Counted from the first letter of the stretch, positions 1 through 63,507 are shown. The stretch: 64,000 nucleotides of DNA from a bacterium (GCA_030697795.1 JAUYOV010000001.1:24486-88485), one strand, 5' to 3'. Numbers and translations: made by a program. Notes: generated by a model from the sequence alone, not told the origin.

Positions 1-210
1 GCCTCGATAATTTTTATTTACTAAACCAGCAGTGCAAAGTCTTCTGGTGTGTTCGCCTAAAGTTTTTTCGTTGGCTTCTAAAGCGTCTACTATAAACTGA
101 AGCGTTATGTTTCCGTGTTCTGCAATAAGCAAAAGAATTTCTATGCGATAGTGATTCGCCATTCCCTTAAGATGCCTCTCCATTTGTTTGGCAGTCTTAT
201 TTTTAGTCAT
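1..210 (-). CDS. winged-helix (ArsR/SmtB-like) transcriptional regulator, C-terminus beyond window start
   Basis: Reverse-strand ATG at 210..208; translation MTKNKTAKQMERHLKGMANHYRIEILLLIAEHGNITLQFIVDALEANEKTLGEHTRRLCTAGLV has the ArsR-type HTH pattern; partial, so absent from the ORF track. Confidence 0.55.
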   Translation of the reverse strand, partial: MTKNKTAKQMERHLKGMANHYRIEILLLIAEHGNITLQFIVDALEANEKTLGEHTRRLCTAGLVNKNYRG

Positions 211-230
211 ATCATAGAATATAAATAGAT

Positions 231-812
231 TTAGAAAATATTCCCAACTCTTTCTTTTGCGTCTAATTCTTTAATCCTTTCGTTAAGATAATTATTATCT
301 ATTTGATAGATGTTTAAAAAGTTATGAATGTCCTCTATATCTTTTTTACCTTCTTCTGGCCCACGTTGCAATAAGGCTTTTATAAGCAAAACATCTTCTG
401 GAGGTAATAAATACAGATTAACCCCTTTATATTCAAACTGAATTCTTTTTTGCTTAATATTTTCAGTAATGCCAAATTTATAGTGCTTATCAAGATTAAA
501 TTCTAAATGGCTAGTAAATTGTATAGAATGATTTCCTTCGGGATTAGAGTTTCTAACCGGTCCAGCTTTCGATGTGTGTGTATACGATTCTATGTTAAAC
601 AACTGGTCAACAATGTCGTGTTCGCCGTTTGGTAAAAAAATATCTACATCATCCGGAATTCTTTTGTTACCCAGCAAGAAAAGGCAGCCACTACCGCCTA
701 TCATCCAATTTATAGAAGCCTTATTTAATTTTTCCGCAACAGAAACCAACATCGGAAACCTAAGCATAGATTCTTCTAGCTTTTTAATATCCATATTTAA
801 ATTATACAGCAC
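231..812 (-). CDS. Pol-beta-superfamily nucleotidyltransferase domain protein
   Basis: GGSGCLFLLG...DDVDIF matches the GS-x(9-13)-DxD nucleotidyltransferase signature; 193 aa; lies immediately upstream of the wHTH gene on the same strand. Confidence 0.5.
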   Translation of the reverse strand: MLYNLNMDIKKLEESMLRFPMLVSVAEKLNKASINWMIGGSGCLFLLGNKRIPDDVDIFLPNGEHDIVDQLFNIESYTHTSKAGPVRNSNPEGNHSIQFTSHLEFNLDKHYKFGITENIKQKRIQFEYKGVNLYLLPPEDVLLIKALLQRGPEEGKKDIEDIHNFLNIYQIDNNYLNERIKELDAKERVGNIF

Positions 813-870
813 ACCCTTATAATCTCAAGTTTGTCAGGGTATGTTTATTGTGTTGAAACGATAGCTTGGA

Positions 871-980
871 TTATATTAAACCATAGTCTCAAGTATGTTG
901 GGGTGTCATAAGTTAGCCTGCCCAGAATAAAAACTAAACTCCCTGCTTCTTTAAACGGACTGAATGGAAAATTAGACATG
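871..980. repeat. dispersed intergenic repeat, degenerate module A plus module B (copy 1)
   Basis: Module B (cccagaataaaaactaaactccctgcttctttaaacggactgaatggaaaattagacatg) is near-identical to 1665..1727; a degraded module A precedes it. Confidence 0.6.
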
Positions 981-1060
981 AATTTAATTCTCAGAAGGGC
1001 AACCCTTCGTTCTTTGTTTTTATATTGATATAATAAACCTATATTAAGCACCCGTCTATT

Positions 1061-1450
1061 ATGAATAAAAGATTTAACGAATGGATTAACTTAAAAGAAT
1101 CTTTAGACAAACAAAGTAACCGTCCGCCGCTTGTTTCAAAAGGAGATATTTGGTGGGTAAGTGTTGGAGAAAATGTTGGATCGGAAATCAGTGGTAAAGA
1201 TACTTTATTTTCACGTCCGGCAATTGTTCTTAAAAAACTTGCTCATGGTTTTTATTTTGTAATTCCAACAACAACTAGACCAAGAAAAGGAACTTGGTAT
1301 GTGGATTTTAAACATCAATCTATAGATATGGTCGCTTGTCTCCATCAAGCGCGTGCAATTGATTATCGCAGGTTATCTTCTAAGCTTGGAACGCTTGATG
1401 ACGAAGATTTCGCTAGAGTCAGAAAAGGATTCCAAGAACTCTATATATAA
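1061..1450 (+). CDS. mazF: MazF/PemK-family endoribonuclease toxin
   Basis: GDIWWVSVGENVGSEISGKDTLFSRPAIVL matches the PemK/MazF N-terminal signature; 129 aa; a hairpin terminator follows at 1455..1485; no adjacent antitoxin ORF. Confidence 0.7.
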   Translation: MNKRFNEWINLKESLDKQSNRPPLVSKGDIWWVSVGENVGSEISGKDTLFSRPAIVLKKLAHGFYFVIPTTTRPRKGTWYVDFKHQSIDMVACLHQARAIDYRRLSSKLGTLDDEDFARVRKGFQELYI

Positions 1451-1581
1451 ACGAATTCCCCGCCTTTTGAGGGGCGGGGCCGCGGGAAAATCCCGAATAT
1501 AATACGAGTATATTACCAATCACTCCTACTGTCAATTGTTCCCTTATTTTGCGATAGGGTCGGGCCGAAGCCATTGTTAAT

Positions 1582-1727
1582 ATATATTAAACCACAATAT
1601 TAACATACTGACATACTTGAGATTGTTGGTATGTTGTTAACCTAGGATCGAGCTGAGGTTAGTGCCCAGAAATAAAAATCAAATTCCCCCTGCTTCTTTA
1701 AACGGACTGAATGGGAAGTTAGACATG
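1582..1727. repeat. dispersed intergenic repeat, module A (hairpin, 13-bp stem) plus module B (copy 2)
   Basis: Module A aacatactgacatacttgagattgttggtatgtt recurs at 5783..5836 and in-frame at 19881..19917; module B recurs at 921..980. Confidence 0.65.
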
Positions 1728-1733
1728 GAAGAT

Positions 1734-1934
1734 TTATAAAGAATCTTTTTTAATTTTATCTTTTATCAAGCCCTCTTTTTGTTCTTTTGTTAATAATCCC
1801 CTTGCTTCATCTAATAAGTTTTTGCAAAACTCCCAGTCTTTTTTTAGCTTTGTTATTTCTTTGTTTCTTTCTTTAATTTCGATCAACGCCACTACACTTA
1901 TAAGAATAATAGAAATTAGTAATGATATTGTCAT
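1734..1934 (-). CDS. small single-TM hypothetical protein
   Basis: 66-aa ORF with a hydrophobic N-terminus; last gene of the minus-strand operon 4464->1734. Confidence 0.3.
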   Translation of the reverse strand: MTISLLISIILISVVALIEIKERNKEITKLKKDWEFCKNLLDEARGLLTKEQKEGLIKDKIKKDSL

Positions 1935-2036
1935 AAGGTTATTTGTCTAATGGCATATTAATAAATTGATCCCGAAGGGTTACTATTCGTTTTTTATTTT
2001 TTACAGTTTACTGGTTGAAATTGATGGGGCATAAAA

Positions 2037-2984
2037 TTATTTTTCTAATTTTTGTATGTATTTTGGAAATATTTGTTTAAATATATCCATTTGACCGATT
2101 GCCCATCGAATAAGCTCATTGATTTGGTTATCTGTCATTTTCTTAATATTTGAAGGCATTTTTTTATAAACCACTATTCTTGATGCTCGTTTTTCTGATA
2201 ATTCTTCCCAATTCAAATCAGAAAATTTTATATCTATTTCTGTTTGATATTTTTTCAATACTTGGAAATAGGCTTTTACTTCTTCCTTGTCCCCCGTATC
2301 AATATAAAGTTCGGTATCAAAACGATTATCTCCTCGAAATGCCCAGGCAAATTTAAATCCTGTTTTTCCAGCTCCAAATGCGATCCAACTTGAAGGACGT
2401 GCAGTTAGGTGTCCCCATTCTGGTTTTACTTTTTCATATTCAGAGACAAGACGAGTAAAAAATTGTAAATACTTTTGATGTCTCTCATCAATCTGCTCTG
2501 TGGCTTTTTTTACTTCCTTACCCCACGTATTCGGTTCAACCACCGATTTAAAACTTAAAGCCGGATTACTTTCATCTATAGTAATTGCAGAAACCTCAAC
2601 TCCAAAAAAAGACACATCGCTTGCGTTTTCGTTTAACCACTCAAGAGCTTTTTGATGCTCCTCTCGTATTTTTTCTGATACCCATACCACATATCTCGCG
2701 CCTACACCTGAAGCGTATGTGATAATTTTTCCAAGATGATCATGATTAGTTTGGTTAAATTGATTTTCAATAATTACTTTATCTTCAGAATTTGCCTCTT
2801 TCCCTATAAGATCGCAGTTAAAATCTCCAATTCTCTCTTCTCTTTTGACGTCTATAATTTCAACTCCAATTGCTTCAGATAACTGGTCAATATTGCTTTC
2901 GAGCCATGGAGTAAAATCTGACGCTTCACCAGGGAAAACATCTCTCAAATCTACTTTTTTAATTTTGCCTAGATTTTTTTTCAT
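2037..2984 (-). CDS. DUF4268-type protein with N-terminal PD-(D/E)xK/NucS-like nuclease domain
   Basis: N-terminus VDLRDVFPGEASDFTPWLESNIDQL is the hallmark start of DUF4268-family proteins; 315 aa. Confidence 0.5.
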   Translation of the reverse strand: MKKNLGKIKKVDLRDVFPGEASDFTPWLESNIDQLSEAIGVEIIDVKREERIGDFNCDLIGKEANSEDKVIIENQFNQTNHDHLGKIITYASGVGARYVVWVSEKIREEHQKALEWLNENASDVSFFGVEVSAITIDESNPALSFKSVVEPNTWGKEVKKATEQIDERHQKYLQFFTRLVSEYEKVKPEWGHLTARPSSWIAFGAGKTGFKFAWAFRGDNRFDTELYIDTGDKEEVKAYFQVLKKYQTEIDIKFSDLNWEELSEKRASRIVVYKKMPSNIKKMTDNQINELIRWAIGQMDIFKQIFPKYIQKLEK

Positions 2985-3065
2985 ATTTTTTATTTAATTA
3001 AATCATCAACGCTAACTCCAAATATAAAACCAGCAAGGATTGTTCTTGGTAAAGATTTTTTACTT

Positions 3066-3887
3066 CTAGCGAGTAATAAGAACTATAATCTCCAGCTCTT
3101 TACCACCCATACTAATTTTACTCTCTATGCCTGACTTAAAAGCATATTCGTTATCTATTGCGTGGCTTGGATCAAAAATAACAAATATTATTCTATAGCA
3201 AGAACTCTGATTACCGTATGAAATAATATCCTCTTTGCATTGTTTTTGAATTTCTTTTTCCTTACCTTTATCTGAAATATATTTTGTCTCTATAAAAAGT
3301 CCAAGTTCTTCAATAGTAAAATCAATTGTGCTTGAAGCGGTACCAACTTTTTTATTTGGGTCTTCATATTGTAGAGTAGGAAATGGTCCTTTCAACATGA
3401 CATACAATATATCTTGAATATCATACTCGTCTCTGACTTCTAAGGAATTCTTTCCTTTCCTACGATGCTTAAGACGACTAATCACATCTGACAATCTATT
3501 CAAGATATTTATCACTTGATGGACCGAAGGGAGGGTATTTCCAACTAAAGGGATCCCTGTTTTTATTTTTGTTCTTGCACTCATCGCAAGACCTCGGAGT
3601 TTCAAAATACTTTTTGTTTTTATAGTATTTTGGAAAGACCCAATAAATCCATCAATAAATAAATCCCCATCATGCAGTTTACTTTTTGGATCAAATTCAT
3701 CACTTAAATCTCCAGTAGTGGAAATTCCAAGTTGTTTAAATATTTCTTCTATAATCCCCCAAATATTCTGTATATTACCTAGGTGTTCCTCTATTTCTTC
3801 TATATTTCCTTCGCTCCTTTTTTTCAACCAGTTTGAGATGTTATTGATGAAACTATCAAGGTATTTAATTTGGGATCGTTTATCCAT
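3066..3887 (-). CDS. hypothetical protein, C-terminal half with a possible PD-(D/E)xK-like motif
   Basis: 273 aa; IDFTIEELGLFIETK resembles a D..E.K nuclease core; overlaps the upstream Bro-N gene by 8 nt, implying an operon. Confidence 0.35.
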   Translation of the reverse strand: MDKRSQIKYLDSFINNISNWLKKRSEGNIEEIEEHLGNIQNIWGIIEEIFKQLGISTTGDLSDEFDPKSKLHDGDLFIDGFIGSFQNTIKTKSILKLRGLAMSARTKIKTGIPLVGNTLPSVHQVINILNRLSDVISRLKHRRKGKNSLEVRDEYDIQDILYVMLKGPFPTLQYEDPNKKVGTASSTIDFTIEELGLFIETKYISDKGKEKEIQKQCKEDIISYGNQSSCYRIIFVIFDPSHAIDNEYAFKSGIESKISMGGKELEIIVLITR

Positions 3888-4464
3888 ATATTATTTTATA
3901 ATCTTTTACGCTTCTATCTGCCCAGGCTTTTGTAATCTCGTCGGTTAGTATCGCATATTCTAATCCTTCTTTCATTTCCCGTTCTTGCCATTCATCGGTT
4001 AATTCTTTGCGTACTTCAATACTTTTTAAGCGTTGATTTATCCATTCTTTGCTGTATCCTTTTTGCAAATATGTTTTCATCGCCCTATTAAAAGCTAGTT
4101 CTGGATCTGCTGTTTCTTCTATCCGTTCATAGCCAACCTTAGCCAGCCATAATTTAAAAGGTTCTGCTTTTGGGGAAGGGATTGATTGGACTACACGGAG
4201 CAAATCTTCTGTGGAAAAACAGTCTGTTGCATATTTCTTTCCATCAGAAGCTACAAATTTCAGTTGTACGATTTTCTCGTACACCTCACCGCCTTCATCT
4301 TTCAACTTATTCTTTAAATCACTCCAATATCGTTTCGGAATAGTAGAATCAACTAAGACTCCTATTACATCAATAACAGAGAAATACCAAGTTTCTTTTT
4401 TTTCATTATAAAAACGGCGTACTTGCTTTTGGTTAAATAAGACTATTGAATTTGATTTTTTCAT
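3880..4464 (-). CDS. Bro-N (KilA-N/DinD-like) domain protein
   Basis: WYFSVIDVIGVLVDS...KRYWSDLKNKL...KLWLAKVGYERIEE resembles Bro-N/DinD family proteins common on phages and MGEs; 194 aa. Confidence 0.5.
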   Translation of the reverse strand: MKKSNSIVLFNQKQVRRFYNEKKETWYFSVIDVIGVLVDSTIPKRYWSDLKNKLKDEGGEVYEKIVQLKFVASDGKKYATDCFSTEDLLRVVQSIPSPKAEPFKLWLAKVGYERIEETADPELAFNRAMKTYLQKGYSKEWINQRLKSIEVRKELTDEWQEREMKEGLEYAILTDEITKAWADRSVKDYKIIYG

Positions 4465-4504
4465 AATGTAGTACTTGATTTAAAGTATACCAATCAAAAA
4501 TAGT

Positions 4505-5779
4505 TTAACAACTATTCCCCGCCACATAGCCAGTTGTCCAGCAAAGCTGGAGGCTGTAGCCGCCGGAGGGGCGGTTTATGTTTAATACATCGCCCACCAA
4601 ATAAAGCTGGGGCAATATGCGCGATTGCATCGTTTTAAAATCAACCTCGCTTAATATTACTCCACCACTAGAAACCGCCGCTTTATCTTTGCCTAATAAT
4701 CCATCTACATTTAAAATAACAGCTTTTAAAAGCGAAACAAGTGTTTTGCGTTCGGCTGTTTTTACACTGTGGTTAAATGTCTCGCCGTCTATGACGGAAA
4801 GCATAAGGATAGGTTCTACCATGGCTGGTTTAACCAGCATAGAAAGTGTGTTTTTAATTTTTTTATTGCTTTGTTCGGTTAAAATGGTTTGGAGTTTTTG
4901 TTTTAAAGCAGATTGGTCTAGGTTTGGGAATAAATCGAGTTTTATGGTTACATCCGCTTTTTCGGCGTAATCGGCACCTTCGCCTGTGTTTAAAAGTTCG
5001 CCAACTTCGCTACTCATATTTAAAACAGTTGGCCCGCTTATGCCAACGTGTGTAAACAAAAGTTTGCCTTCTTTTGCAAAACATTTCTCTATTCCTTTAT
5101 ATACAGTCATTTTTACGTTATCCAAAGTTACACCGGCTAATCTTTTTACCCATTCGTCTTTAAGTGTAATTGGTACAAGCGCTACATCGTTTTCTTTTAC
5201 AGTGTGCCCCAAATCTTTAAGCCATTTAAAACCTTCGCCGGTAGAACCTGTTTCTGGGCGAGATGTTCCGCCAGTTGCCACAATGCATTTGTGGGCGTGG
5301 ATTATAGATTTATCGGCAAGGGTTATAGAAAATTGTTTTAAATTTTGATCAAAACTTATTTTTGTAACTGCGGAATTAGTTTTAACTTTTACTCCTGCAT
5401 TTTTTATATATTTAACTAAAACATTTAAAACAGTTTCAGCTTTGTTAGAAACCGGAAACATTCTGCCTTCGTTTTCTTCTTTCATCTGCATACCTTTTTT
5501 ACCAAAAAAAACTATTGTTTCGGTTACGCCAAATTGAGAAAACGCCGAAAACAAAAATTTATCGCTTTCTTTATATTTAGCTAATATTTCGCGGATATTG
5601 GGCTTGTTGTTGGTTACGTTGCACCTGCCACCGCCTGTAATTAAAAGTTTTTTGCCAAGAGTTTGGTTTTTTTCTAACAGTAAAACGCTTTTGTCTTTTT
5701 CGGCAGCTCGCCCAGCCGCCATCATACCAGCCGGCCCTCCGCCGATTACTACTACATCAATTGGTTCATTAGATTTCAT
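4505..5779 (-). CDS. HI0933-family (BaiN-like) NAD(P)/FAD-dependent oxidoreductase
   Basis: VVVIGGGPAGMMAAGRAA dinucleotide fold, GGGRCNVTN motif, C-terminal GYSLQLCWTTG; 424 aa. Confidence 0.8.
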   Translation of the reverse strand: MKSNEPIDVVVIGGGPAGMMAAGRAAEKDKSVLLLEKNQTLGKKLLITGGGRCNVTNNKPNIREILAKYKESDKFLFSAFSQFGVTETIVFFGKKGMQMKEENEGRMFPVSNKAETVLNVLVKYIKNAGVKVKTNSAVTKISFDQNLKQFSITLADKSIIHAHKCIVATGGTSRPETGSTGEGFKWLKDLGHTVKENDVALVPITLKDEWVKRLAGVTLDNVKMTVYKGIEKCFAKEGKLLFTHVGISGPTVLNMSSEVGELLNTGEGADYAEKADVTIKLDLFPNLDQSALKQKLQTILTEQSNKKIKNTLSMLVKPAMVEPILMLSVIDGETFNHSVKTAERKTLVSLLKAVILNVDGLLGKDKAAVSSGGVILSEVDFKTMQSRILPQLYLVGDVLNINRPSGGYSLQLCWTTGYVAGNSC

Positions 5780-5782
5780 TAA

Positions 5783-5836
5783 ATATATTAAACCACAATA
5801 TTAACATACTGACATACTTGAGATTGTTGGTATGTT
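5783..5836. repeat. dispersed intergenic repeat, module A only (copy 3)
   Basis: atatattaaaccacaatattaacatactgacatacttgagattgttggtatgtt fills the gap between the HI0933 gene start and the ABC-F stop. Confidence 0.65.
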
Positions 5837-7289
5837 ATCGTTCTAAATCCAGAACTTCGTCTATGCGTATCTGCGCCACAAATTCTGGAACGTGACTAAC
5901 TAAAACCATCGCGCCTTCGTAATCATTAAGGGCTTTAGCAATTATGGGTAAATGCCTAAAGTTTATGTGGTTGGTAGGTTCGTCTAATATAAGTAAGCCT
6001 GGGCGTTCTAAAACCAAACGGGCAAATGCCACTAAACCTTTTTGCCCTTCGGATAGTGTTCCAATTTTACTGTGCATATGTTCGCGAGTAATTAAAAAAC
6101 CGGCCGCAATAGAACGAAGTTCCTCTTGGCTGGTTTCGTGTGTGGTAACAGCAGAAAGAGATTCGTAAACTGTATCGTTAAAATTAAGTGTAGAAAAATC
6201 TTGGCGGTAGTAGCCTACTTTTACACCACTCGCAATTTTAGCGCCTTTGGCTTTACCCGAAGCTAAACATTCTAGTAACGTACTTTTACCAATTCCGTTT
6301 GGCCCTTTTAAAAGCAGATGCGTTTTCTTTTTTAAAGAAATTTCTACTTTTTTCTCTACAACTTTATGATTAATTATTATACCAAGCGAAGTTATGGCAA
6401 GCGCTTCGCCCACAAAATCGGTTTGGTTAGGAATAGTAAAAGGCCTAATGGTTTTATCTTCTTTACGCACATCTACCATTTCGTCTTCCATTTCGGCAGC
6501 TTTTTCGCGCATACGTTTGGCTAACAAACGTAATTGGCCACCTTTGTTGGCAAAGAAGTTAGATTTGTCTTTGTTTTCTTGAATCTGTTTGGCTAACTGT
6601 GCATTTTTTCGGTTTTCTTTTTCTATGCGGGCAGTAATATCTTTTAAAGCATCGTTGTAGTTACCCACATACCATTCTAATTTTTGGGTATGAAGATCTA
6701 AGTATAAAACACCTTCGGTAAACGAATTTAAAAAATCGGCATCGTGCGAAATAACAATACAGGTTTTTTGATATTCAATTAAAAATTTTGTTAAATGTTC
6801 AATACCTTGTTTGTCTAAATTGTTGGTAGGTTCGTCTAAAAGTAAAAGATCTGGATTTTGAATAAGGGCAAAAGCCAAAAGAAGCCTAGCTTGCTGACCA
6901 CCAGAGAATGTTTTTATAACTTTATCGTGTTTTGCCGTAAGGTTAACTGCTTCTAAAACTGCATCTATTTTTGGGTCGATGTCGTAAACTTTTTTTGGGA
7001 AAGCTTTGGCAAAAAATTCGGTTACGGTTAAATCGAGTTCGTTTCTAGAAATAACTTGGCGTGCGATAGCAATAGAAAGATTAGGCGAAATTATTACACT
7101 GCCACTTTCGGCTTTATATGTGCCAGTAATTAAACCGAAGATTGTGCTTTTACCTGCGCCGTTTTGACCCATTAGCGTTATTTTGGCTCCACGACGCACC
7201 GAAAAAGTCGCCTCGTCTAGAAGGCGCTTACCATAGGAATGTTCGAACGAAACCTCGTCGAACCTTAGTATTACTTCGTCTCGAGCCAT
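5835..7289 (-). CDS. ABC-F family ATPase (two tandem ABC domains, no TM domain)
   Basis: Two Walker A motifs (GQNGAGKST, GPNGIGKST), two LSGGQ-like signatures, two LLLDEPTN Walker B motifs; 484 aa. Confidence 0.85.
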   Translation of the reverse strand: MARDEVILRFDEVSFEHSYGKRLLDEATFSVRRGAKITLMGQNGAGKSTIFGLITGTYKAESGSVIISPNLSIAIARQVISRNELDLTVTEFFAKAFPKKVYDIDPKIDAVLEAVNLTAKHDKVIKTFSGGQQARLLLAFALIQNPDLLLLDEPTNNLDKQGIEHLTKFLIEYQKTCIVISHDADFLNSFTEGVLYLDLHTQKLEWYVGNYNDALKDITARIEKENRKNAQLAKQIQENKDKSNFFANKGGQLRLLAKRMREKAAEMEDEMVDVRKEDKTIRPFTIPNQTDFVGEALAITSLGIIINHKVVEKKVEISLKKKTHLLLKGPNGIGKSTLLECLASGKAKGAKIASGVKVGYYRQDFSTLNFNDTVYESLSAVTTHETSQEELRSIAAGFLITREHMHSKIGTLSEGQKGLVAFARLVLERPGLLILDEPTNHINFRHLPIIAKALNDYEGAMVLVSHVPEFVAQIRIDEVLDLER

Positions 7290-16307: not shown

Positions 16308-16403
16308 ATTTATCGAAGTGGGACTTCAATAATTTAAGTTTGTAAATTAACAACAACACTCCGACATTCTCAAGAATATTGGAATATTGAAAAAAATTAA
16401 AAT

Positions 16404-16849: not shown

Positions 16850-17452
16850 ATGAAAAGAGTTTTTATTATTCACGGCTACGATGCCACGCCCGAAGACAAT
16901 TGGCTCCCTTGGCTTAAAAAAGAATTGGAAGCTAAAGGATTTGATATTGCGGTGCCCCAGATGCCCGAAGCCGATAACCCAACCTTGGAGAAATGGCTTT
17001 CGCATATTCAACAACTTATCGGCGAGTGCGATGAAAACACTTTTTTGGTCGGCCATAGTTTAGGCACTATAACTATTTTAAGATTTTTAGAAGCTTTGCC
17101 CGAAAACCAAAAAGTTGGCGGAGTTGTTTTGGTAGGCGGTTTTTCTGAATCTTTAAACTTTAAGCCCTTAAAAACATTTACCGAAAAACCGCTTGATTAC
17201 GAAAAAATAAAAAGATCAATAATAACTGACCAAATTAGCACGAGCTTGCGATCGCAAGCTCGTGCTAAAGAAAGAATAGTAGCTATACATTCTACTGATG
17301 ACCCCAGCGTTCCTTTTAGATTCTCCGAAATTATTCGCGACAAGCTTAGCGCGGAACTTATAACTCTGCATGGACTCGGCCATATAAATTGGAAGAGTAA
17401 TTGTCTTGAACTACCACAAGCCTTGGTTGCTATACTCAAAATGAATGAATAA
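16850..17452 (+). CDS. RBBP9/YdeN-like alpha/beta serine hydrolase carrying an in-frame palindromic insertion
   Basis: IIHGYDATPEDNW...GHSLG nucleophile elbow ...HG.GH; a 34-bp perfect palindrome (17235..17268) encodes an extra loop. Confidence 0.65.
   Translation: MKRVFIIHGYDATPEDNWLPWLKKELEAKGFDIAVPQMPEADNPTLEKWLSHIQQLIGECDENTFLVGHSLGTITILRFLEALPENQKVGGVVLVGGFSESLNFKPLKTFTEKPLDYEKIKRSIITDQISTSLRSQARAKERIVAIHSTDDPSVPFRFSEIIRDKLSAELITLHGLGHINWKSNCLELPQALVAILKMNE
17235..17268. repeat. perfect palindrome centred on CGATCG, intragenic and in-frame (copy 1)
   Basis: ttagcacgagcttgcgatcgcaagctcgtgctaa; near-identical copy at 63476..63507; related palindrome at 19481..19516. Confidence 0.9.
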
Positions 17453-19013
17453 AGAAAATTTGTACAAAATTCTGCCGATTGCTGCCTTGCTGGCCTTGGC
17501 TGTTTTTTTTGCTTTTTATTACCCGCCTACTGTCGGCATAGATAATTATTACCACATCAGACACGCTTGGATTTATCAAACTCAAGGAATCTTTAATAGC
17601 GATTTTCCTTGGCTGGAAAATTCCGTTATTGGGAAACTAGGTGGCGATATTTGGTATGGTTTCCATATATTACTTATTCCTTTCACTTTCTTTACAGATC
17701 TTCTTTTGGGAATTAAGCTTGCAACTGTAGCTATTATTTTTTTCGCACTATTTGCAGTTTATTTTATATTTAAAAAATTTAATATTCGCTGGCCATTTCT
17801 ATGGACTATATTTTTCTTTTTTTCTGTACCTGATGTTCATTTTAGATTAATGATGCTTCGCCCACATGTTTTAACCTTGGCTTTATTAGCTATAATATTC
17901 TACTTGTTAGTACAAAAGAAATTTGGTAAATCAATTTTTATTACTTCGGCTCTAGCTTCATTTATACATATTTCTCTTTTATGGTTACCCCTGCTTATAG
18001 CTTTTGTTATTTTTATTTTCCAAAAAATATTCGAAAAGCGTTGGGAAATTAAAAATAATATTTATTTATTCGCTGGTTTAATTTTTGGTGTAATTTTAAG
18101 GCCAAACGCTCTATCTTCCCTAAAACTTGCCTATATTCAGGTTATTCAACTAAGTTTAGAAAAGTTAAATAACGCACCTTTAAGATTTGGCACAGAACTT
18201 CGTCCTGGCAATGATCTAAGTATACTTTTATTCGAAATTTTACCAATATCTTTAATTGTTATAGCAAGCATTGTTAGTTTGGCAATCTTTTTAAGAAAGA
18301 GAAAAATTAGTTTAGAAAATCAAGAAAAAACCGTTATATGGAGTTTAGTTACCTTTTTTATAATCTTTGGCGTATTGTTTTATACTTTTGCCCGCCGTAC
18401 TGCCGATATCTGGGTTTTATTTTCTATATTACTAGCTGCAGTAGCTTTTTCTATGGTTTTAAAAAATAACGAAATATATTTAAAGTTTAAAAAAATATTT
18501 TTAACTATATTTTTTGTGGTAATAATTGGTTTTGGCGCTCAAACATTAAGAATTGTTTCTGGTTACATTTCTGGCTTGCCACCACAAAATATGTTTAAGG
18601 AATCTGCCAACTGGCTCAAAGAAAATAGTGAAAAAGGAGATATTGTTTTTAATACTCGTTGGGATAATTTTTCTTTTATGTTTTTTTGGAACCAACATAA
18701 TCATTTTATAAATGGCATGGATCCAATATTCGAATATTCAAACAATAAAAGCTTATATCTACAGCATTACTTTTTAGAGATAGATAAAATCTTAATGGTG
18801 AATGGCGAAGCCTACACTTGTGGTGCTAACCCTTGCCAAGAAGGTGCTGTAAGCACGGTTTACGATTCGTTAAAAAATAACTTTAAAGCAAAATATATAT
18901 TTGTGGAACCTGCCAGAAATCCTATGCTCTATAAATTTTTAGATTCCAATAAACATTTCGATAAAGTTTTTGATGCTAGAAATAGCTTAGAAATTGTTTT
19001 CAAAGTTTTATGA
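17445..19013 (+). CDS. polytopic membrane protein, putative GT-C-fold glycosyltransferase (paralog 1)
   Basis: 522 aa, ~12 TM segments then a soluble Cys-containing C-terminal domain; D.YYH motif near the N-terminus; paralogous to the next gene. Confidence 0.45.
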   Translation: MNKENLYKILPIAALLALAVFFAFYYPPTVGIDNYYHIRHAWIYQTQGIFNSDFPWLENSVIGKLGGDIWYGFHILLIPFTFFTDLLLGIKLATVAIIFFALFAVYFIFKKFNIRWPFLWTIFFFFSVPDVHFRLMMLRPHVLTLALLAIIFYLLVQKKFGKSIFITSALASFIHISLLWLPLLIAFVIFIFQKIFEKRWEIKNNIYLFAGLIFGVILRPNALSSLKLAYIQVIQLSLEKLNNAPLRFGTELRPGNDLSILLFEILPISLIVIASIVSLAIFLRKRKISLENQEKTVIWSLVTFFIIFGVLFYTFARRTADIWVLFSILLAAVAFSMVLKNNEIYLKFKKIFLTIFFVVIIGFGAQTLRIVSGYISGLPPQNMFKESANWLKENSEKGDIVFNTRWDNFSFMFFWNQHNHFINGMDPIFEYSNNKSLYLQHYFLEIDKILMVNGEAYTCGANPCQEGAVSTVYDSLKNNFKAKYIFVEPARNPMLYKFLDSNKHFDKVFDARNSLEIVFKVL

Positions 19014-20569
19014 AAACTCTAATTCCAGTTTTATTTTTTTTATTACTTTCAATAGTTTTTAATTTTTCCTCACCCAATATCCCCGACCCCGATTCTTTTT
19101 ATCATATTGCGCACGCTAAAATTTACCGCACCGAAGGAATAACTTTTAAAGAATTTCCTTGGACACAGTTTTCGACCATCAAACAATATTCTGCCGACCT
19201 TTGGTATGGTTTTCATATTTTATTGATTCCTTTCTCTTACTTTTCCGGAACACTTGGCATTAAACTTGCTGGGGTTTTGTTAACATTTTTTGTTTTACAC
19301 TCTCTGTTTTTTGTTTTAAAAAAACTGAATGTTGTTTATTCTGGGCTTTGGACATTTCTGGCTTTTGTTTCGGCACCTAACATATTAAACCGCCTGCTTA
19401 TGATGCGGCCGCATCTTTTATCTTTAGCTTTAATCATCTTGATTTTTTATTATCTGACACACCACAAAAATCAAGTAACACATACACTGAGCATACGATC
19501 GTATGCTCAGTGTATGATAATTTTTACCCTTTCATTTTTAGTCTCATGGATACATTTAAGCTTAGTTTGGATTCCCGTGATGGTTTTTGGAATAGTATTT
19601 TTAATTAAACTAATTATCGAGAAAACTTGGTTCTGGCGCGAAGGCTTGGTTTTATTAGCCGGTAGCATAACAGGCTGGTTGGCTAGGCCAAACCCTATTG
19701 GAGCCATAAAACTTGCCTACATTCAAGTGATAGAGCTTATGCTTCAAAAACAACAAGAAGTTACACTTCTTTTTGGGCGAGAAATCTTTCCTTTAGCACT
19801 CCAGACTCTTTTCCAAAACTTCTCTGCATTTGTGATTCTATGGTTTTTTGCCATAGTGGTTTTAATCTTGCTGATCAAAAAACATACCAACATACTTGAG
19901 AATGTTGGTATGTTATCTTCGGGCATAATATCTATAATATTTTTTATCTTAACTTTAACCACCGCTCGCCGTTCGCACGATATCTGGATTCCTTTTGGCA
20001 TAATTTTTATTGCGTTAGTGTTAAGCGAAGCACTTAAACTAAATAAAAAAAATAGTTTATATTACATAACTATTTTTATAACAGGCTTAGTCACAATATT
20101 TTTAACAATTTATACTCCCTATAAAAATAGTACTAGCTTAAAAGAAAACGCTATAAAACCAACTAAATTCAAAGAAGCGGCACTATGGCTAAAAGAAAAT
20201 TCCCAACCAAAAGATATTGTTTTTAATGTACGCTGGAGCGATTTTCCCATGCTTTTTTATTGGAACAATAAAAATTATTATATTGGGGGTATGGATCCTA
20301 TATTCCAATATTCTTTTGATAAAAATCTCTATTGGAAATTTCACTATATTTCGGTAGACGAAGTCACTAAATATACTTGTGCCACCCCTGCTTGCACCAA
20401 AGAGATGCTTGTAGATACCTATACAGTTTTAAAAAACGATTTTAAGGCCAAGTATGTATTTTTAGAAAAACAAAGAAACCCGCTTTTTTATTATTATCTA
20501 GAATCAACTCCAAAACACTACGCCAAGAAAATAGATACCTTAGCCGAAGCGGTTTATGAAATAAAATAA
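19010..20569 (+). CDS. polytopic membrane protein, putative GT-C-fold glycosyltransferase (paralog 2) with two in-frame repeat insertions
   Basis: 519 aa, same architecture as paralog 1; contains the 36-bp palindrome at 19481..19516 and a module-A hairpin copy at 19881..19917, both in-frame. Confidence 0.45.
   Translation: MKTLIPVLFFLLLSIVFNFSSPNIPDPDSFYHIAHAKIYRTEGITFKEFPWTQFSTIKQYSADLWYGFHILLIPFSYFSGTLGIKLAGVLLTFFVLHSLFFVLKKLNVVYSGLWTFLAFVSAPNILNRLLMMRPHLLSLALIILIFYYLTHHKNQVTHTLSIRSYAQCMIIFTLSFLVSWIHLSLVWIPVMVFGIVFLIKLIIEKTWFWREGLVLLAGSITGWLARPNPIGAIKLAYIQVIELMLQKQQEVTLLFGREIFPLALQTLFQNFSAFVILWFFAIVVLILLIKKHTNILENVGMLSSGIISIIFFILTLTTARRSHDIWIPFGIIFIALVLSEALKLNKKNSLYYITIFITGLVTIFLTIYTPYKNSTSLKENAIKPTKFKEAALWLKENSQPKDIVFNVRWSDFPMLFYWNNKNYYIGGMDPIFQYSFDKNLYWKFHYISVDEVTKYTCATPACTKEMLVDTYTVLKNDFKAKYVFLEKQRNPLFYYYLESTPKHYAKKIDTLAEAVYEIK
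19481..19516. repeat. 36-bp perfect palindrome centred on CGATCG, intragenic and in-frame (family member 2)
   Basis: catacactgagcatacgatcgtatgctcagtgtatg; each half is related to the 17235 palindrome (cacgagcttg|CGATCG vs cactgagcata|CGATCG); encodes about 12 aa extra relative to paralog 1. Confidence 0.85.
19881..19917. repeat. module-A hairpin repeat copy inside a coding sequence
   Basis: aacataccaacatacttgagaatgttggtatgttatc, ~30/34 identical to intergenic module A; encodes NILENVGML. Confidence 0.6.
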
Positions 20570-28609: not shown

Positions 28610-28800
28610 AAAAGACTTATATTTCTCTTTCTATCGAAGTTCCACTTCGATAGGTTTTAATGTCTTAGATAACTTTGACTTTTACCACAATATTTGCCAT
28701 ACTAATTATAGCGTTTGGAGGGTTCGCCCTCTCACAGCTTTCAAGCTGTAGCCAGACGCTAACAAAGAACCCGCCTTTTGGCGGATTTTTTGTTTTAAAT

Positions 28801-55052: not shown

Positions 55053-55188
55053 ACCAACTTGATCGAACACTCGGTGTTTGATCAGGAGAATTTAAACAAA
55101 AAATAAAGCGGGTATGCATTATGCATCCCGCTATTTTTATTAAAATATTCTCATATTCTTGAGAATGTGAGAATATTTTTGTGCTTGG

Positions 55189-57542: not shown

Positions 57543-57815
57543 CTAGGAGCGGGATGAGCCATCCGATAAAAATTCTTTTAACAATCTTATTCGTTCTTTA
57601 TAGCCAAATAGACTCTTGAGAAACTTTTCTCTTCTCATCGCTTCGGATCGTGACTTATATATTTCACTTTTGATGAATAATAATGGTCGCCTGTTTTTCG
57701 TAGATTTAACCTTGCCACCAAAATGCTCTTTGAGTCTAATGTCGATTTTACTTGTTTGCCCAATGTAAAGTTTTTTATCTTTTTGGCTATAAAGAATATA
57801 TACAAAATAGTTCAT
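57543..57815 (-). CDS. GIY-YIG nuclease-domain protein
   Basis: MNYFVYILYSQKDKKLYIGQTSKIDIRLKEH...NRRPLLFIKSEIYKSRSEAMRREKFLK is a GIY-YIG core; start set to the internal Met because the track ORF runs into the tRNA. Confidence 0.6.
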   Translation of the reverse strand: MNYFVYILYSQKDKKLYIGQTSKIDIRLKEHFGGKVKSTKNRRPLLFIKSEIYKSRSEAMRREKFLKSLFGYKERIRLLKEFLSDGSSRS

Positions 57816-57826
57816 AAAATACTTTG

Positions 57827-57898
57827 CTCCGGTGGTAGGATTCGAACCTACAACCATCGCCTTAACAGGGCGCCGCTCTACCGTTGAGCTACACCGGA
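57827..57898 (-). tRNA. tRNA-Asn (anticodon GUU), CCA not encoded
   Basis: Reverse complement folds: acceptor TCCGGTG/CACCGGA, D-arm GCTC-AACGGTA-GAGC, anticodon loop CTGTTAA, T-arm GTAGG-TTCGAAT-CCTAC, discriminator G. Confidence 0.8.
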
Positions 57899-57936: not shown

Positions 57937-57998
57937 CCTGCAACCATCGCCTTAACAGGGCGCCACACTACCTCCGCCAGCTGGCGGAGAGCTACCGC
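57937..57998 (-). pseudogene. partial tRNA-Asn-like copy (D-arm and anticodon-arm sequence, no T-arm) with an inserted perfect hairpin
   Basis: 24-nt exact match caaccatcgccttaacagggcgcc to tRNA-Asn 57851..57874; upstream gtagctc D-arm remnant interrupted by the hairpin tccgccagctggcggag. Confidence 0.5.
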
Positions 57999-62441: not shown

Positions 62442-62549
62442 AACCTGACCTGACGGTCTCGTCTGGAAACAAGCTTCATCCCCGTTCCAACTAAATTGGA
62501 ACGGGGATTTTTATTTTGGGTTAAAAAGTTGCCATCCATAATAGAAAAT

Positions 62550-62572
62550 CTATCGAAGTGGAACTTCGATAG
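62550..62572. repeat. 23-bp hairpin ctatcgaagt-gga-acttcgatag (family also at 28631..28653 and, degenerate, 16311..16331)
   Basis: Perfect 10-bp stem; each copy sits just after a plus-strand stop codon. Confidence 0.6.
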
Positions 62573-62637
62573 AAACAAACCCAGCACCTTTTGTTTAAAA
62601 AGGTGCTGGGTCTTTTAATAATTACTAACTACTACGT

Positions 62638-63475: not shown

Positions 63476-63507
63476 TAGCACGAGCTTGCGATCGCAAGCT
63501 CGTGCTA
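63476..63507. repeat. 32-bp perfect palindrome centred on CGATCG, intergenic copy
   Basis: tagcacgagcttgcgatcgcaagctcgtgcta, identical core to 17235..17268; lies just downstream of a minus-strand gene, next to the hairpin cccgcatcttttt..aaaaaggtgcggg. Confidence 0.9.

Follow-up and report, generated by a model that had tools for sequence, protein, structure and literature searches.

A long palindrome and an ArsR/SmtB-like protein: a predicted operator-regulator pair of Patescibacteria

We analyzed a 64,000-nt stretch of bacterial DNA (assembly GCA_030697795.1, contig JAUYOV010000001.1, positions 24486-88485; hereafter, "the window" is this whole stretch, which is AT-rich, with a GC content of 37.5%) that contains two short repeats, modules A and B, in the vicinity of a mazF toxin gene. 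The palindrome in module A is probably the operator of an autoregulatory winged-helix protein of the ArsR/SmtB kind that is found throughout the candidate phyla radiation (CPR, or Patescibacteria). The sequence family of the palindrome, its distribution, its association with a gene, its overlap with promoters and its synteny are direct observations. The best-supported explanation is a new, predicted lineage-wide pair of a regulator of this kind and its operator, with a site of unusual length and conservation and with in-frame intragenic copies. No description of the palindrome or of the regulator-site pair was found in the literature searched. Patescibacteria have tiny genomes with few recognisable regulators and, to our knowledge, almost no experimentally defined regulatory circuits.

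A palindrome family shared across Patescibacteria

A scan of one genome per species, in 185,579 species, with the pattern ACATACNNACATACTTGAGANTGTNNGTATGT recovered the 32-nt palindrome ACATACCAACAT-ACTTGAGA-ATGTTGGTATGT at 33 loci from about 22 metagenome-assembled genomes. Every locus among these that carries a taxon label comes from the CPR, namely, from Saccharibacteria, Kaiser-, Giovannoni- and Paceibacteria, and the Parcubacteria group, and the 32-mer is nearly invariant across loci with a GC content spanning 38-62%. Scans of viral contigs for the cores of modules A and B gave 0 matches, and so there is no sign of a phage origin.

Searching the same loci for TTGA with complementary arms revealed a wider family. 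Its members share the centre ACAT[A/T]C-TTGA-GAATGT, with outer arms that are copy-specific yet complementary (for example, TATATATTCTCACATTC.., TACTCCGACATTC.. and TACCGCTAAGTTCCAAAGTTC..); the centre of the 46-bp site reads CTTGAGAAT. In an alignment of 53 sequences, 14 of the 19 arm pairs covary, with changes on both sides; such double-sided changes occupy 94 cells compared with 39 +/- 5.5 in shuffles, and the pairing collapses once the partner column is slid. The inner 14 arm pairs were partly selected for by the search, but pairs 15-17, which were not, are still paired in 60-80% of the copies. A covariance model built on this alignment was used to find the sites in the window.

The palindrome is tied to the gene of an ArsR/SmtB-like protein

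In the fetched loci (denoted below by L numbers), matches to the model were paired about 335 nt apart, with the same protein of 94-95 aa encoded between them. Among the 33 loci, which were picked by DNA alone, 8 have the gene of this protein precisely between two sites; by a rough estimate, chance would yield less than one such case. The gene also stands beside the palindrome in L038 and, truncated, in the window. The reverse test used six loci that were fetched through the protein only and that come from Sungbacteria, Uhrbacteria and one lineage of Parcubacteria; each of them carries a site just ahead of the ATG and another that overlaps the stop codon. In these six loci and in about 10 further ones, the upstream site occupies positions of about -55 to -10 relative to the ATG of the regulator gene. 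About 10 of the 14 regulator loci share one promoter layout, CTTGAGA, 16+/-2 nt, TAnnnT (TATAAT-like), 6-7 nt, ATG. The invariant centre of the palindrome, TTGAGA, is predicted to be the -35 hexamer of a leaderless regulator promoter, and a palindrome that overlaps a promoter in this manner is, as judged from sequence, arranged like a classical autorepressor operator. That the palindrome is strictly associated with an ArsR-like winged helix-turn-helix (wHTH) gene and its promoter argues for a protein-binding operator rather than for a MITE (a miniature transposable element with inverted repeats).

In the window, the regulator locus comprises two genes:

1..210, minus strand: first 70 codons of the ArsR/SmtB-like winged-helix gene, cut by the window edge (Pfam HTH_5/MarR; tblastn)
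231..794, minus strand: nucleotidyltransferase-fold gene (DUF2204/DUF6036), first gene behind the operator-promoter

The promoter in front of them, at the palindromic site 804-849, consists of TTGAGA (828-823), 16 nt, TATAAT (806-801), 6 nt and ATG (796-794), and scores 11/12 in a promoter scan. It precedes the nucleotidyltransferase gene, which is followed by the ArsR-like gene. L038, a close relative, lacks the nucleotidyltransferase gene and has the regulator directly behind the operator, which suggests that this gene was inserted into that operon. A -10 element only 6-7 nt before the ATG, without a Shine-Dalgarno sequence, is found at two places in the window (801-806/794 and 5787-5795/5779) and before the regulators of L012, L028, L043, L047 and L048; given this proximity and the lack of a Shine-Dalgarno sequence, leaderless mRNAs are apparently used for these genes.

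The open reading frame (ORF) of the regulator in the window is 73% identical to the L028 protein (tblastn) and 81% identical to the L038 ortholog; the full length in relatives is 94-95 aa. The consensus is M.K.KTAKQMERHLKG.ANHYRIEILLL...GITLEDIVE.LGANEKT.GEHTRRLY.AGL.NKKYRGKFVEH.LSPYGKTFV.FLKSFQ. Both the L028 protein and the window ORF match Pfam HTH_5 above the cutoff (E = 1e-6), a match to an NCBIfam ArsR/SmtB subfamily reaches 38.6 bits, below the model cutoff of 55, and a profile search finds CadC, ArsR and HlyU structures in the PDB at E = 5e-5 to 3e-3. The consensus contains no cysteine, which makes the usual thiolate metal sites unlikely, and no obvious metal-site motif was noticed by eye. 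The protein forms at least 2192 clusters at 90% identity; the best 120 of these, all >80% identical, stem from Parcubacteria, Uhr-, Sung- and Paceibacteria.

Identity of >80% across candidate phyla among the best 120 clusters is unusual for a regulator and would suit a chromosome-organisation site of the parS/matS type, that is, one bound by a small wHTH protein without being a gene-specific operator. The tolerance of sites inside ORFs and the regional clustering in the window, where 4 of the 7 sites lie in the first 6 kb, by the regulator gene, point in the same direction. Nevertheless, we consider this the least probable of all the explanations discussed here because the sites systematically overlap -35/-10 elements and start codons, the window shows no skew switch of the kind seen at a replication origin or terminus, and there is no adjacent ParA-like partner.

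The surroundings of the regulator gene in L043-L048 tend toward variable and defence genes, including PD-(D/E)XK nucleases, a reverse transcriptase, methyltransferases, a DDE transposase and a terminase. Directly beside the regulator gene, TspO recurs in these loci.

Sites and repeats in the window

The covariance model and the repeat comparison yield the following elements:

804-849, minus strand: palindromic site with degenerate arms (model match of 28.8 bits; orthologous site in L038)
871-910, no strand: A', a half or degenerate copy, ATATTAAACCA + TCTCAAGT + ATGTTGGGGTGT, with inverted centre (not present as such in L038)
914-980, plus strand: module B copy 1 (B1), lineage-specific non-coding sequence without stable fold (L038 ortholog about 80% identical)
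1582-1641, plus strand: module A copy 1, a 21-nt flank (the minus strand carries TGGTTTAAT) and the site 1596-1641, with the core at 1603-1634
1657-1727, plus strand: module B copy 2 (B2), followed by a terminator-like hairpin at 1729-1751 (ortholog in L034)
5783-5842, plus strand: module A copy 2, including the site 5797-5842; its core, 5804-5835, starts within the ABC-F stop codon
16349-16394, minus strand: family member with other arms, CAATATTCCAATATTC-TTGA-GAATGTCGGAGTGTTG, between the stop of one gene and the start of the next
19875-19920, plus strand: perfect canonical site, in frame in GT-C paralog 2, peptide KKHTNILENVGML (covariance model, ORF reading)
55138-55183, plus strand: family member, AAAATATTCTCATATTC-TTGA-GAATGTGAGAATATTTT, 10 nt past the stop of a minus-strand gene of 553 aa

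The two copies of module A are identical across 54 nt (1582-1635 and 5783-5836, 100%), which far exceeds the chance expectation for 64 kb. A first-pass annotation, made from the sequence alone, had described module A as a ~55-bp element with a 13-bp stem. The exact 54-nt duplicate bears out the element, but in both copies the hairpin is imperfect, with 11 of 13 Watson-Crick pairs and two G.T pairs, and the perfect 13-bp stem with the 8-nt loop ACTTGAGA occurs only in a third, partial copy (19861-19914, with the palindrome at 19881-19914). That copy indeed lies in frame within GT-C paralog 2 (ORF 19010..20569), as had been proposed, and translates as HTNILENVGM. The notion that the A copies sit exactly in gaps between stop and start codons is correct for copy 2, which fits precisely between the stop of ABC-F (5835) and the start of the flavoprotein (5779), but not for copy 1, which lies within a 283-nt gap between two convergent stops. 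On the minus strand, the core of copy 2 is followed by TGGTTTAAT, 7 nt and the flavoprotein ATG. The two copies of module B are 95% identical across 40 nt (941-980 and 1688-1727), and their likeness, with small indels, widens to about 914-980 and 1657-1727; the direct repeats of ~65 bp that had been noted on either side of mazF (1061..1450) are thus real.

Altogether, the model scan finds 6 full sites and one half site (871-910) among roughly 70 genes, or about one site per 10 kb, and 4 of these 7 lie in the first 6 kb, beside the regulator gene. Because the element is not ubiquitous between genes, the objection that such repeats might be generic terminators, which the first-pass annotation raised against its own proposal, does not apply. 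The degenerate copy at 804-849 and the family members at 16349-16394 and 55138-55183 had been overlooked.

Sites between genes and the possibility of an RNA hairpin

When site positions were classed with a simple ORF model, many intergenic copies were found to start 0-30 nt past a stop codon, in either orientation, and many copies precede a start codon by 10-60 nt. In L035 and L037 (84% identical flavoprotein), the site between ABC-F and the flavoprotein gene is retained in synteny, with changed arms (ACACCC..GGGTGT vs ACATAC..GTATGT); in L037, the site and its flank are duplicated on both sides of an extra AIRS-domain gene. Sites precede TspO in L027 and L028, and an in-frame site within TspO (..PYILEN[IV]RML..) is retained in two lineages, L043 and L048. 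The other genes downstream of sites encode a glutaredoxin-like protein, a small monooxygenase-like protein, YgjP, a DNA-alkylation-repair protein and a TruB fusion, a set of neighbours with a possible stress-response theme. In L043 and L045, the gene of the PIF1 helicase is likewise followed by a site. No sites were found in the 20 kb of L040.

The frequent placement just past stop codons (0-30 nt), the long stems with complementarity beyond the conserved core, and the compatibility of the mismatches in A copies 1 and 2 with G.U pairing on the plus strand are features that one would expect of a hairpin acting in RNA at gene ends, as a stabiliser of the 3' untranslated region, an unconventional terminator or an RNase III target. 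This is, however, very unlikely: the stems are AT-rich and lack a U-tract, post-stop copies occur in both orientations, other copies lie inside ORFs and at -35 regions, a separate conventional terminator follows the site 55138-55183, and the specific partner is a DNA-binding wHTH protein. A terminator scan calls none of the sites, and Rfam searches, both at the gathering threshold and at E <= 10, return nothing at modules A and B or at the mazF-linked RNA described below.

In-frame copies and the spread of the site

About 15 copies lie inside long ORFs, namely, those of ArgRS, PurN, MnmA, YchF, MutY, CapA, ComEC-like, YgjP and GT-C proteins. All 15 of 15 share one orientation and frame, so that they are translated as HTNILENVGM or arm variants such as HTDILENVSM (..ILEN..M); with five of the six frames open, this bias is very unlikely to arise by chance. 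Judged by alignment to solved structures, the site causes no net change in length in PurN, YchF and ArgRS, nor does it in GT-C paralog 2 when compared with paralog 1 and with the L035 ortholog; in MutY and MnmA, it adds net length (a clear +17 aa and about +7 aa, respectively). We rejected TTGAGA as an internal promoter of the in-ORF copies, none of which has a -10 element at the proper distance.

The occurrence of the same 32-mer in a single frame (15 of 15) in unrelated ORFs of different genomes, together with the net insertions in MutY and MnmA, is what a non-autonomous mobile palindrome spread by a trans-acting enzyme would produce, be it MITE-like, similar to repetitive extragenic palindromes (REP) or similar to Rickettsia palindromic elements (RPE), the link to the ArsR-like gene then being secondary, in that the element would carry, or would have turned into, the site of that protein. 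The exact 54-nt duplication of module A and the presence in the window of A', which L038 lacks, are also in line with mobility, as are two other perfect palindromes of the window that form clean in-frame insertions (+16 aa in Ser_hydrolase and +13 aa in GT-C paralog 2). Against this stand the low copy number (6-7 per 64 kb in the window, none in 20 kb of L040), the absence of target-site duplications and end tags, the lack of any recognised transposase, REP-associated tyrosine transposase (RAYT) or recombinase (among 9 ORFs examined by Pfam and roughly 60 by eye), several ORF copies that add no length (PurN, YchF, ArgRS, GT-C), and the syntenic stability of sites among relatives. Specifically, the edges of 57 palindrome copies showed direct repeats of 2-6 nt no more often than shuffled pairings did, and the flanking 4-mers are heterogeneous, with no GTAG/CGTC REP tag at the site ends. 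As the whole explanation of the element, mobility appears unlikely; as a description of how the sites spread, it can coexist with the operator reading, of which it is either the main rival or the complement. The first-pass idea of a MITE-like or recombinogenic element accordingly fares unevenly, in that the palindrome is dispersed and some copies are net insertions (MutY, +17 aa), but no target-site duplications or REP tags were seen and no transposase was recognised among the window ORFs.

Three palindromes of another type deserve mention. The perfect palindrome TTAGCACGAGCTTGC-GATC-GCAAGCTCGTGCTAA occurs twice in the window in identical form (17235-17268 and 63476-63507), and the copy at 17235-17268 adds 16 aa in frame to the Ser_hydrolase gene (16850..17452) when the 73%-identical L035 ortholog is taken as the reference. 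At 19481-19516, a perfect palindrome with 16-bp arms, CATACACTGAGCATAC-GATC-GTATGCTCAGTGTATG, lengthens GT-C paralog 2 by 13 aa, in frame, when compared with paralog 1; it was searched for and not found in a subset of the fetched loci. The window also encodes, at 3066..3887, a protein with a DpnII/MboI-like (GATC-type) nuclease fold, and the insertion palindromes are GATC-centred. Such clean in-frame insertions imply that a process creating or transplanting palindromes is active in this lineage, and that process may also spread the operator. We therefore entertain, tentatively and with well under even confidence, the possibility that the TTGA-centred palindromes are mobile operators, with copy-and-paste or patch replacement spreading the site into promoters and ORFs, possibly by the same process that inserts GATC-centred palindromes into ORFs of this genome.

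A replaceable block of accessory genes next to the sites

The region between module B copy 2 and the ABC-F gene contains:

1734..4464, minus strand: accessory genes for a 66-aa membrane protein, DUF4268, a DpnII/MboI-like nuclease fold (3066..3887) and Bro-N (Pfam, ORF reading)
4505..5779, minus strand: HI0933-like flavoprotein gene, conserved in relatives, first downstream of A copy 2 (Pfam)
5835..7289: ABC-F ATPase gene (ORF/Pfam reading)

A 22-mer of module B matched a single metagenomic contig, L034, which turned out to be the homologous locus of a relative. The order there is the 3' end of mazF, a GC-rich element, an A-like palindrome with an inverted 8-nt centre, module B, four genes and the 3' end of the flavoprotein gene. 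These four genes (245, 78, 96 and 234 aa) are unrelated to the block genes of the window, and the junction of the swap falls exactly at the flavoprotein stop codon. As read from this comparison, the replaceable block is 1734-4504, bounded by module B (or by the hairpin after it) and the flavoprotein stop. The first-pass annotation had let the A copies delimit a block at 1734-5779; that delimitation does not hold, given that the flavoprotein gene is conserved and the junctions lie outside the palindromes. Its view of the neighbourhood as a hot spot of accessory genes agrees with the swap, and the 4-kb accessory stretch has the lowest GC content of the window, 33.6%. A second comparison, between L043 and L045, which have an identical regulator and about 92% identity over the shared transcription factor (TF)-TspO segments, likewise places the breakpoints of gene content away from the palindromes. 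The hairpins were accordingly rejected as breakpoints of variable blocks on the strength of both comparisons.

These data also bear on whether the palindrome is a recombination site, similar to lox/FRT/dif or attC, that bounds gene cassettes, an interpretation suggested by its 13-8-13 architecture (13-bp arms around an 8-bp asymmetric spacer). Such a site would account for the accessory genes nearby, for the direct repeats around mazF and for the duplicated site and flank on either side of the extra AIRS gene in L037; furthermore, the sites of the window are directly oriented, and the spacer is inverted between the orthologous sites of the window and L034. Nonetheless, this is extremely unlikely. 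Apart from the swap junctions (at the flavoprotein stop and beside module B) and the L043/L045 breakpoints, which avoid the palindromes, there is no tyrosine or serine recombinase gene near any site, many sites lie within essential ORFs, and the pattern of conservation is reversed, with an invariant centre and variable outer arms, for which reason we dropped the lox/dif-like candidate. Inspection by eye for features of integron attC sites revealed no GTTRRRY core at the site edges, palindromes that are perfect or nearly so and lack bulges, and no integrase.

The origin of the 54-nt identity between the A copies can be read from the relatives. Their left 30 nt (TATATTAAACCACAATATTAACAT.CTGACAT) correspond to the locus beside mazF in L034, and their right part (ACTTGAGATTGTTGG..TGTT) to the locus beside ABC-F in L035 and L037, so that the copies look like a gene-conversion or duplication tract rather than a pair of transposon ends. 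Conversion is also suggested for module B, where B1 and B2 are closer to each other than to their own orthologs; in L038, module B is only about 80% conserved while MazF is 95% identical at the protein level. Module B always lies about 12-25 nt from a palindrome (about 65 nt for B1 in the window, with A' between). It is not tied to mazF because L050 (82% MazF identity) has mazF and its small RNA without either module B or the palindrome. We rejected module B as a coding sequence: either strand has short ORFs, in which the two B1/B2 differences are synonymous, but L034 and L038 preserve neither a start codon nor a frame. We also rejected it as a structured RNA, given fold z-scores of +1.1 to +1.6 (plus strand) and of -0.7 and +1.6 (minus strand). 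Module B is lineage-specific and travels beside a site.

mazF and a convergent small RNA

The toxin locus between the two copies of module B consists of:

994..1021, plus strand: terminator-like hairpin with a T-run after B1 (sequence reading)
1061..1450, plus strand: mazF/pemK toxin gene of a CPR-wide subfamily (Pfam PemK_toxin)
1452..1535, minus strand: convergent small RNA (sRNA) gene, -35 TTGACA (1535-1530), -10 TATACT (1512-1507)

The MazF subfamily is found across the CPR and comprises proteins of 128-130 aa that are about 70% identical; the gene in the window has an extended -10 element (TGATATAAT) at 1026-1034, and no protein antitoxin gene adjoins it. The predicted sRNA would extend from about 1500 to 1455 and end in a hairpin (1479-1458) with a U-rich tail that abuts the mazF stop; its sequence is AUAUUCGGGAUUUUCCCGCGGCCCCGCC-loop-GGCGGGG, followed by that tail. 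In every locus examined (L034, L038, L039, L040-42 and L050; 74-95% MazF identity), the mazF stop is followed by ATTCCCCGCC-loop-GGCGGGGCCGCGGGAAAATCCCGAAT. The opposite strand before this mazF-linked element carries TTGACA, 16-17 nt, TATACT and 6 nt; the hexamers are conserved and the spacer has diverged, with a weaker version in L040 (TTGACC / AAAATA). Conservation of the RNA runs from the predicted transcription start to the hairpin and U-rich tail, and, in L050, one stem position is G.U on the sRNA strand but an A.C mismatch on the mazF strand. There is thus good comparative evidence for a predicted convergent sRNA of ~55 nt beside mazF, which has no match among Rfam families and is a candidate RNA antitoxin or cis-antisense regulator of mazF.

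How the regulator might act

In the mechanism that we favour, a small dimeric ArsR/SmtB-like protein, the product of the gene at 1..210 (minus strand), would bind the central palindrome of module A. In front of the regulator's own gene, the site would span the -35 element (TTGAGA) and the spacer, with the -10 element 6-7 nt before the ATG of a leaderless mRNA, and binding there would shut off transcription of the regulator; a second site overlaps the regulator stop codon. Further sites would bring other genes under the same regulator. The targets in the window would be the flavoprotein-led operon with the accessory nuclease block (5797-5842), the locus beside the mazF/sRNA pair (1596-1641), two more positions between genes and one within a GT-C gene, where the bound protein might block initiation or serve as a roadblock or loop anchor. 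The unit of site plus module B would have been duplicated on both sides of an independently mobile mazF-sRNA module. We infer the actual binding, the repression and a signal sensed by the regulator from this arrangement.

Several observations weigh against this scheme. The near-perfect 32-nt sites, with copy-specific palindromy of 17-22 bp per arm, exceed what a typical ArsR dimer reads, and arms of this length look more like the outcome of selection for a hairpin or cruciform, or of copy-and-paste spread. The in-ORF sites in unrelated housekeeping genes cannot stem from point mutation, and some are net insertions. A single genome can hold sites with quite different outer arms (the window; L004), and the centre does not always face the downstream gene in the same way, TTGAGA pointing away from the flavoprotein gene. 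Finally, the AlphaFold model of the regulator is of low confidence (predicted local distance difference test, pLDDT, of 58), with a shallow alignment.

Implications

If the pair is real, a 95-aa protein that is >80% identical across candidate phyla and a site of 32-46 bp whose very nucleotides are conserved would be among the very few lineage-wide cis/trans pairs for the CPR. The predicted regulon is testable, and the neighbouring genes, for TspO, the flavoprotein, the glutaredoxin-like protein and DNA repair, hint at a response to redox or porphyrin stress. For cultivated Saccharibacteria, whose genetics is emerging, the site could also serve as a leaderless promoter/operator part. For annotation, caution is warranted since the element resembles a MITE or terminator, yet is translated inside real genes, and the in-frame copies raise the mechanistic question of how long perfect palindromes enter ORFs. 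If the sites are mobile operators, the regulon of these minimal genomes would grow by operator transposition, not by point mutation. Should the sRNA be an antitoxin, it and the CPR-wide "antitoxin-less" MazF would form a toxin-antitoxin arrangement of a new type.

Two further observations concern other parts of the window. A recurrent hairpin, (TCT)ATCGAAGT-GGA-ACTTCGAT(AGA), at 16310-16330, 28628-28658 and 62545-62575, and also just downstream of the palindrome in L035 and L037, is probably a conserved terminator-type element. The tRNA-Asn gene (57826-57898) has a 36-nt, 92% identical partial duplicate (57937-57972) about 90 nt away, beside a GIY-YIG gene (57543..57857), which could be a scar of integration at the tRNA.

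Comparison with known systems

The predicted pair most resembles the ArsR/SmtB autorepressors (SmtB, CzrA and CadC, with 12-2-12 sites, and HlyU), with which it shares a small winged-helix protein of the dimer type (HTH_5; CadC, ArsR and HlyU in the PDB), an inverted repeat over the regulator's own promoter and extra sites at other genes. Unlike these, the regulator falls below the curated family cutoffs and lacks cysteines or, as judged by eye, an obvious metal-site motif, and the site is far longer and nearly perfect (13-22-bp arms around a 4-8-nt centre), is conserved at the nucleotide level across candidate phyla, always has a second copy over the stop codon and occurs in frame within ORFs. 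RPE, which are selfish, are similar in being palindromes translated within unrelated host proteins, some as clear net insertions, and the GATC-centred palindromes of the window behave alike; however, RPE span 100-150 bp compared with 32-46 bp here, and the present element has a low copy number, is linked to promoters and to the gene of one specific DNA-binding protein, and adds no length in several ORFs. Bacterial interspersed mosaic elements and REP with RAYT likewise consist of short (about 35-45 nt) imperfect palindromes with subfamily-specific arms, mostly located right after stops, but they number in the hundreds as opposed to the tens of copies here, and our element lacks the GTAG/CGTC tag and a visible RAYT gene and is not limited to extragenic DNA. 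With sites of the parS and CIRCE type, it has in common a palindrome and a binding protein conserved across very distant genomes, at the nucleotide level in the case of the site, and parS, too, may be intragenic and adjoins the gene of its protein; the differences from both lie in the protein family, the promoter overlap and the variable outer arms of the element described here.

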